Source: Candidatus Poribacteria bacterium (lineage in GTDB: Bacteria; Poribacteria; WGA-4E; WGA-3G). From it: DNA of 64,000 nucleotides. The stretch is from the NCBI GenBank assembly GCA_965205015.1, contig OZ242029.1, positions 3,392,001-3,456,000 on the forward strand, written 5' to 3'. Positions 2,195-2,280 of the stretch are shown here, piece by piece; within the stretch, counting starts at the first letter, position 1, and each line of letters starts with the position of its first letter. The notes under the pieces are model-generated. The model saw only the letters and a list, made by a program, of their open reading frames with translations, made no database searches and had not been told where the DNA came from. The position numbers and the translations under genes are program-made.

Positions 2195-2280
2195 GCCTGC
2201 AACAACGGCGCAGGCGACTCGAACACGAAAAACGTTAAACTCACAGGTGCTACGACTTATCCGCAAGGAACAATTAAAAA
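2195..2280 (+). repeat. ~86-nt leader element (21-nt hairpin ... CCGCAAGG-A-rich) ending at a start codon; other copies at 4742-4829, 6220-6305, 51528-51613, 60578-60662; 3' part only at 4665-4688, 6999-7019 and 22381-22405 (-)
   Basis: Direct comparison of the copies; spacing from hairpin to start codon is 85-88 nt. Confidence 0.8.

Follow-up and report, generated by a model that had tools for sequence, protein, structure and literature searches.

A mosaic Poribacteria repeat that docks on start codons, and whose tail may serve as a translation-initiation region

Main finding

A Poribacteria-specific, high-copy and mosaic intergenic repeat of about 100 nt, which occurs by the hundred in genomes of sponge-symbiont members of this phylum, often ends directly on the start codon of the next gene. 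In the window considered here (the whole stretch of 64,000 nt that was analysed), it is represented by five full copies, a further two that are partial, and three worn tails. Our favoured reading, to which we give a probability of slightly under one half (about 0.48), is that of a mobile or recombining repeat whose tail would act as the translation-initiation region of the gene that it abuts, as judged from position, complementarity and comparison of orthologous sites. The repeat is real and abundant and, as far as searched, unpublished: no description of this element was found in the literature on Poribacteria repeats and start signals (supplements aside), and no Rfam family corresponds to it, the scan of the window at gathering thresholds returning only tRNAs and a group II intron domain, and that of positions 2100-7100 at E<=1 a single chance miRNA match.

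If the tail starts translation or transcription, a few percent of the genes in an uncultured phylum would have had their native start signals overwritten, and the repeat would amount to a natural, genome-wide and portable expression cassette at about fifteen times the scale of the Neisseria REP2 repeats. The family bears on how small repeats spread without harming genes, on the annotation of gene starts in Poribacteria MAGs, where the tail would mark true starts including GTG and TTG, and on whether one invariant 8-mer could be a global handle on many unrelated genes.

Copies in the window and distribution of the family

A scan of the window with the tail pattern CCGCAAGGNAMAATTARAAA (up to 3 mismatches allowed) gave 9 matches against 0.09 expected, a number attained in none of 100 shuffles, while an nhmmer profile built from 86 copies of other genomes gave 7 matches, namely the five full copies, the truncated copy at 4624-4687, and the copy preceding the trigger factor gene tig, which is devoid of the standard hairpin (Table 1). 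An earlier reading of these letters without database searches (hereafter the sequence-only reading) had placed five full copies at hairpin-to-start distances of 86, 88, 86, 86 and 85 nt, and all of them were found where it placed them, with the same distances. It had also reported the 3' part of the element before tig and before the NIPSNAP gene: the former is an exact tail (22382-22401, minus strand), 1 nt from the TTG start at 22380, whereas the latter is present in a worn version that lies beyond three mismatches. The GTG at 6306, directly after the third full copy, is indeed out of frame, and the RraA-like gene downstream likely starts at ATG 6337, judging by its orthologues. Annotation of the downstream genes (ILVD/EDD dehydratase, metallo-beta-lactamase fold, RraA-like, trigger factor, PurE-like AIRC, NIPSNAP and two without a Pfam family) upholds the view that they are functionally unrelated. 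The worn tail at 5616-5635 contains the stop codon of the gene upstream. A cluster of six tRNAs (22480-23134, minus strand) lies directly upstream of tig, and the repeat occupies the spacer between the last tRNA and this gene.

Table 1. Copies and remnants of the repeat in the window, with the start codons that they adjoin.
Feature	Position	Strand	Parts and profile match	Adjoining start or remark
Full copy 1	2195..2280	+	hairpin 2195-2215, variable middle, tail 2261-2280; nhmmer model 3-92, 45.5 bits	ATG 2281, ILVD/EDD-family dehydratase gene
Older 5'-truncated copy	4624..4687	+	model 29-90; tail 4668-4687	displaced from the start codon by copy 2
Full copy 2	4742..4829	+	hairpin 4742-4762, tail 4809-4828 plus T; 62.9 bits	ATG 4830, metallo-beta-lactamase fold; stacked behind the older copy
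Worn tail only	5616..5635	+	CCATAAGGAAAAATTATAAA	ATG 5636, PurE-like AIRC
Full copy 3	6220..6305	+	hairpin 6220-6240, tail 6286-6305; 71.3 bits	
Degenerate tail	7000..7019	+	CCAAAAGGAAAATTAAAAAA; missed by the 3-mismatch scan	ATG 7020, NIPSNAP
5'-variant copy	22382..22448	-	model 38-91; GTTTTGCTTGGGTGTTTC module replaces the hairpin arm	
Worn tail only	47202..47221	-	TCGCCAGGTACAATTAAAAA; found by the tail-pattern scan	
Full copy 4	51528..51613	+	hairpin 51528-51548, tail 51594-51613; 55.8 bits	ATG 51614, gene without Pfam family
Full copy 5	60578..60662	+	hairpin 60578-60598, tail from 60644; 55.4 bits	GTG 60663, gene without Pfam family

Beyond the window, 114 of the 116 tail-pattern matches listed for 185,579 species (one genome each) belong to Poribacteria MAGs. 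Genome-wide counts refer to five related complete chromosomes (G001 to G005), each of which holds 336-415 tails, compared with 0-2 matches of the reversed pattern. Profile searches of an unbiased 400 kb in two of these chromosomes gave 35 matches in G003 and 29 in G001, or about one per 11-14 kb, of which 20 and 22, respectively, are full length, the remainder being without the 5' part.

Anatomy of the unit

Read from its 5' end, the unit opens with a short lead-in rich in A and a hairpin of 21 nt; a middle of about 44 nt follows, constant in length but not in sequence, and then the invariant CCGCAAGG and an A/T-rich tail. The lead-in is conserved over some 10-16 nt before the hairpin (..AAA.CCGT, then AGCC) and brings the whole unit to about 100 nt; the invariant AG of the hairpin is preceded by GT in about 60% of 110 copies (G in 68, T in 71). 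In 41-42 unbiased copies, AG, G and AA are fixed in the hairpin region, and CCGCAAGG (unit positions 72-79, for example 2261-2268) carries 1.83-2.0 bits per base, against an average of about 0.7 bits in the middle. The tail then reads [A/T]A[A/T/C]AATTAAAAA, with A81 and T85 invariant (1.04, 2.0, 0.48, 1.46, 1.2 and 2.0 bits at positions 80 to 85 in 41 copies). Unlike the terminal inverted repeats of a MITE, the ends of the unit are not mutually inverted, the left one being an A-rich lead-in with CCGTAGCC and the right one AATTAAAAA. A-rich runs flank the unit on both sides and could conceivably be a duplication, with no clean pair of empty and filled sites among the orthologous sites compared.

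The hairpin is held by base pairing. Compensatory changes affect two of its four pairs in the five window copies, and in 108 copies the three inner pairs covary (CG/UA 89/15; 83/14 plus 4 AU; 66/42), with 0-4 broken cells each and none in column 10:25 (66 CG, 42 UA), in line with the covarying arms described by the sequence-only reading. The loop is of a few types, one of which, GTAAYGWARTGGAG, has a C...G or T...A pair that changes together (seen by eye, uncounted). Intermediates between the alternative pairs (8 G-U, 6 A-C) are uninformative as to whether the hairpin acts as RNA or DNA.

Covariation is confined to this 5' hairpin. Single copies fold no better than their shuffles (z from -1.3 to +1.3), RNAalifold returns the hairpin and a 2-bp CC/GG helix and nothing else, and permutation tests over 108 copies gave no excess pairing for a helix in the middle (z 0.9), for a helix sequestering the Shine-Dalgarno (SD) motif (z -0.4), or for a switch between GCGG and CCGC (z -2.8). 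Neither that switch, which had been proposed for the element and would call for copy-specific pairing, nor the idea of a global structured leader is supported. A search for further complementarity to 16S rRNA yielded nothing beyond AAGGA. A reading of CAAGGA as a CsrA site was also discarded, PF02599 matches being found in none of the five genomes while controls were detected. The invariance of CCGCAAGG extends to its CCGC, although no reading requires these four bases.

The unit is also modular. In some copies the 3' arm of the hairpin is replaced or followed by an GGGTTTTTGCTTGGGYGTTTC module, which may lie in either orientation (window 22416-22440, minus strand; L014, L096, L100, L105) and has the look of a small, independent component of the mosaic. 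Some units have a second mini-repeat, a palindrome of some 30 nt (ATTGTCCC...CTAGG type), nested in the hairpin loop (the G003 orthologue of 60578-60598; L033, L097). Compared with the element of fixed length (~86 nt) initially described, the unit is longer, with its lead-in, may take an optional insert, and is often 5'-truncated.

Docking at start codons

In 99 of 217 unique copies, the end of the tail lies no further than 2 nt from a start codon that opens an ORF of 80 codons or more, while only 825 of 20,000 random positions (4.1%) are so placed; docking at start codons, as originally claimed, is thus borne out, and the random placement that would contradict it was not seen. Most of the abutting copies lie at offset 0 (67, with 14 at -1, 15 at +1 and 3 at +2), and similar proportions dock in the unbiased samples (15 of 35 in G003, 12 of 29 in G001). 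The start lies 12 nt from GG in 65 of 96 copies, the start codons concerned are ATG (90), GTG (6) and TTG (3), and the downstream gene is co-oriented with the unit in 183 of 214 copies (86%). At unit sites the start codon is identical in genomes without the unit (dehydratase gene, tig). On the upstream side, a co-directional ORF ends before the unit in 95 of 130 full copies (median gap 82 nt), and 31 face a divergent start.

In the other 118 of the 217 copies the tail is not docked on a start. A native SD comes immediately after about 17 of these copies (offsets 9-14), a duplicated tail of 21 nt follows about 8, and a complete further unit follows several. Stacking is head-to-tail: an older tail lies within 120 nt upstream on the same strand for 22 of 135 full copies, and on the opposite strand for none of the 135.

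Turnover at orthologous sites

All five chromosomes are collinear with the window, G003 at an identity of 84-93%. Between genomes that are 84-97% identical in the flanking genes, the unit has been gained, lost, replaced, stacked or 5'-deleted, so that presence and absence at orthologous sites show it to come and go between close relatives. Before the dehydratase gene (2281), the window carries one subfamily; G002, G003 and G005 carry another with an insert module, to which G004 adds a further nested insert, and G001, without a unit, has GGAGG 9 nt before the same ATG. At the 4830 site, G001, G002, G004 and G005 have only the truncated copy, placed on the ATG, while the window and G003 alone add 141 nt (a linker and a full unit) between the tail of this truncated copy and the ATG. 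The worn tail before 5636 corresponds to a whole unit in G002, G003 and G005, and to unrelated DNA in G001 and G004. The tig copy is replaced in G003 by 141 nt of unrelated DNA with GAGGA, the sequences rejoining at the TTG, and at the site of the worn tail 47202-47221, G003 has 167 nt more, with a full unit and an inverted hairpin.

Two further sites indicate which part of the unit is kept. A full unit precedes 51614 in the window, G001 and G005, and G002 is without it and has AGGA 8 nt before the ATG; in G003 and G004 only the tail remains, with different deletion joints. These are independent deletions in which the hairpin and the middle are gone while the tail is kept on the ATG, and the upstream ORF now enters the tail. 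Before 60663, a full unit is found in the window, G001, G004 and G005, the hairpin is split by the nested palindrome in G003, and G002, without the unit, has an ATG in place of the GTG of the others, with AAGGA 8 nt before it. These comparisons show that an ordinary SD takes the place of the unit wherever it is lacking, and that the tail is the part that is retained. Taken with the dispersal of the copies, they uphold the earlier view of a mobile element to the extent that it turns over and sits at initiation regions; that it also supplies these regions is the most likely case.

Large lineage-specific insertions also occur in the repeat-bearing spacers (orthologues of 2078-6336; L122, L125, L126). 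They measure about 1.1 kb in front of the 4830 gene (G003), about 1.4 kb in front of the RraA-like gene (G004) and 2.4 kb in front of the dehydratase gene (G001).

What the tail may do

The 3' end of the 16S rRNA reads ...CACCTCCTTTCT, and the AAGGA of the tail would pair with its UCCUU at the spacing usual for this organism, while the A-rich spacer that follows would keep the start codon unstructured. Genes that lack the element have their GGAGG peak at -14 to -11 and their AAGGA peak at -18 to -11; in the element, AAGGA starts at -16. Where the unit is absent, a native SD precedes the same start codon (GGAGG in G001, GAGGA in G003, AGGA and AAGGA in G002), and copies reduced to their tail adjoin arbitrary DNA upstream, even coding DNA. 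The hairpin appears dispensable for the downstream gene and may instead help the repeat to spread or stabilise the RNA. Head-to-tail stacking and A-rich left flanks suggest that the unit itself is added to the 3' border of a resident tail or of a run rich in A.

Could the tail be a promoter instead? Its sequence [T/A]A[A/T/C]AAT resembles a -10 box, in which case transcription would start on the start codon itself (leaderless) or just before a native SD, and the repeat would be a portable promoter, a reading that we hold to be rather unlikely. The invariant A81 and T85 correspond to A-11 and T-7 of such a box, with T found as a variant at -12 and -10 only; in most copies the last base of the hexamer lies 6 nt before the start (5 nt follow TT in 58 of 92), the offsets are very tight (67 of 99 at 0, which is tighter than SD spacing alone demands), the ~17 copies that end directly on a native SD at offsets 9-14 would be accounted for, and T-versions of the hexamer (TATAAT, TAAAAT) abut starts in 7 of 12 G001 copies. 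However, the unit has neither a -35 element nor TGn, and a sigma-70-type pair of -35 and -10 elements was found in none of three full copies scanned, even though the phylum's own rRNA promoter is canonical. In G003 that promoter, upstream of the rRNA operon (L169:1312-1346), is TTGACA-17-TATAAT with an A/T-rich stretch upstream, which indicates that sigma-70 signals of the canonical kind are in use in Poribacteria. Element-free genes lack a TANNNT peak at -12, which marks the organism as SD-led and not as one with many leaderless genes; 9 of the 99 abutting genes, tig among them, start with GTG or TTG; tail-only copies lying inside the end of an upstream ORF have arbitrary DNA at the would-be -35; and the few tail haplotypes may reflect subfamilies rather than selection. 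Contigs from RNA libraries of relatives hold hairpin, middle and tail on a single record and extend past the tail into coding sequence, which argues weakly against a start of transcription at the tail, as these contigs are without transcript ends and may contain DNA. They come from four RNA runs (contigs only, mostly 90-95% alike); long ones cross the hairpins, and loose contig ends lie behind 4827-4829 and 6305.

Part of the argument turns on the base that follows GCAAGG, at which SD (AAGGA) and -10 box (TAnAAT) overlap. Copies with A abut a start in 63 of 98 cases and copies with T in 31 of 105 (Fisher p = 7e-7, for pooled related copies whose independence is overstated), and in G003 the split is 15 of 23 against 0 of 8, whereas the unbiased G001 sample does not replicate it (5 of 13 against 7 of 12, p = 0.43); the association thus separates the two readings only weakly. 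The tail might also be bifunctional, with this single shared base shifting its use: besides 82, the A/T position is the only strongly polymorphic one of the tail, abutting copies are enriched in A both in the pooled set and in G003, a separate SD follows about 10 T copies and about 2 A copies, and the analogous REP2 repeat is described as carrying both a promoter and a ribosome-binding site (PMC3184786, as far as the part consulted goes). The failure of the split in G001 and the caveats of each single function, which apply here too, make such a double role distinctly unlikely. A broader proposal, which combines a bifunctional tail with directed arrival by something other than a transposase of a known family, and which makes CCGCAAGG, shared by some 150-190 genes per genome (336-415 tails, of which 41-46% abut a start), a candidate handle for an RNA- or DNA-binding factor, seems unlikely as a whole.

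A repeat that is purely selfish, whose position at start codons would reflect no more than insertable A-rich runs and tolerated sites, would fit the differences in presence, absence and replacement between close genomes, the A-rich consensus on the left flank, the head-to-tail stacking behind older tails (22 of 135, with 0 of 135 on the other strand) and the 118 copies that abut no start. It leaves unexplained why independent deletions keep exactly the tail on the ATG, why CCGCAAGG and the tail contrast with a middle of ~0.7 bits, and why 86% of the copies are co-oriented with the next gene; moreover, the native SD is absent wherever the unit abuts a start, so that the gene must use something in the tail. 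We regard this reading as improbable. Most improbable of all is a cis-regulatory RNA (riboswitch or protein-binding leader) of a single regulon: a conserved covarying hairpin and an invariant 8-mer are what one would look for, but the downstream genes are unrelated, Rfam offers no match, the middle is unconstrained and without covarying helices, folding does not exceed that of shuffles, and there are hundreds of copies, present or absent at orthologous genes.

The reading of the tail as a translation-initiation region has its own difficulties. The offsets, as noted, are tighter than an SD requires, CCGC is invariant without a role in an SD, and 38 abutting AAGGT copies (pooled set and G001) offer only 4 pairing bases; non-abutting AAGGT copies, for their part, are often followed by the gene's own GGAG.

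Spread and comparison with known repeats

The closest published analogues, by analogy of placement and of presumed service, would be the Neisseria REP2, the Borrelia IR and the mycobacterial MIRU repeats. In the part of the review consulted, REP2 and the Borrelia IR-A/IR-B elements are described as intergenic sequences of ~100-180 bp without terminal inverted repeats and with 5' stem-loops (Delihas 2011, PMC3184786), which lie immediately upstream of unrelated ORFs, carry a ribosome-binding site, and are fused to the translational start (PMC3184786, citing Morelle et al. 2003 and Dunn et al. 1994). The Poribacteria unit resembles them in lying immediately upstream of ORFs with a putative ribosome-binding site, suggested by position and complementarity. 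REP2, as presented there, has ~23-26 copies, a recognisable promoter, its own ATG and a co-regulated set of genes (PMC3184786), whereas the Poribacteria unit has 336-415 tails per genome, a single covarying hairpin and no -35/-10 pair (in 3 copies), ends before a native ATG, GTG or TTG, and is stacked, truncated and spread over unrelated genes; the two are likened by description only.

MIRU are presented, in the part consulted, as small and apparently mobile elements that insert at start codons in operons with little harm to expression (PMC12548453, citing Supply et al. 1997), which is maintained by an ORF within the element that is coupled to the gene at -4 nt (PMC12548453). The Poribacteria unit likewise sits at start codons (99 of 217 within 2 nt), but without such an ORF: over 64 full abutting copies, the median upstream ORF is 0 codons in all three frames, with 10-13 copies per frame having an ORF of at least 10 codons. 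It brings an SD-like motif instead. Promoters of leaderless genes in Actinobacteria and Deinococcus, as far as the sources consulted describe them, have a -10-like hexamer 6 nt before the start codon (PMC4007540, PMC3898074), and the Poribacteria tail shows a -10-like hexamer ending at the same distance; it differs in lying within a dispersed repeat, overlapped by an SD-like AAGGA, in genomes without a genome-wide leaderless signature.

REP, BIME and REPIN elements are short G+C-rich hairpins with compensating changes and a GTAG tag, present in hundreds of extragenic copies and mobilised by RAYT (Y1) transposases, and REP hairpins are found singly or in inverted pairs, typically downstream of genes. 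The Poribacteria unit shares with them a short, G+C-rich and covarying hairpin, often preceded by GTAG, and hundreds of extragenic copies. It differs in that 22 of 24 hairpin matches lie inside the composite unit, so that the hairpin is not a free-standing REP, and in its head-to-tail arrangement at the 5' ends of genes. None of the 32 PF01797 (Y1_Tnp) loci found in the five chromosomes is flanked by inverted hairpins within 1.5 kb on each side; four of them have a one-sided match to the element, which is no more than the background density.

Simple insertion between a native SD and its ATG was also considered. Relics of an SD just upstream of the hairpin are not enriched (7 of 50, against 15 of 50 in a control window), so this is not a general route; the 51614 locus alone keeps a native-like AGGA...GAAAC on its left, as seen by eye.

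Other features of the window

Tandem arrays of the heptamer TAACTGA lie at 7353-7380 (-), 14247-14267 (-), 14898-14925 (+), 20961-20995 (-), 28019-28053 (-), 28094-28114 (+) and 42138-42165 (+), several of them just upstream of start codons (for example ATG 20954 and TTG 28146), and a pattern of the heptamer dimer (up to 3 mismatches) has 32 matches in the window against 4.67 expected. The abstract of the relevant paper describes this heptamer repeat for Beggiatoaceae, Cyanobacteria and Bacteroidetes and does not name Poribacteria (PMC4679880). The group II intron domain recognised by Rfam lies at 56222-56302 on the plus strand (48.3 bits).
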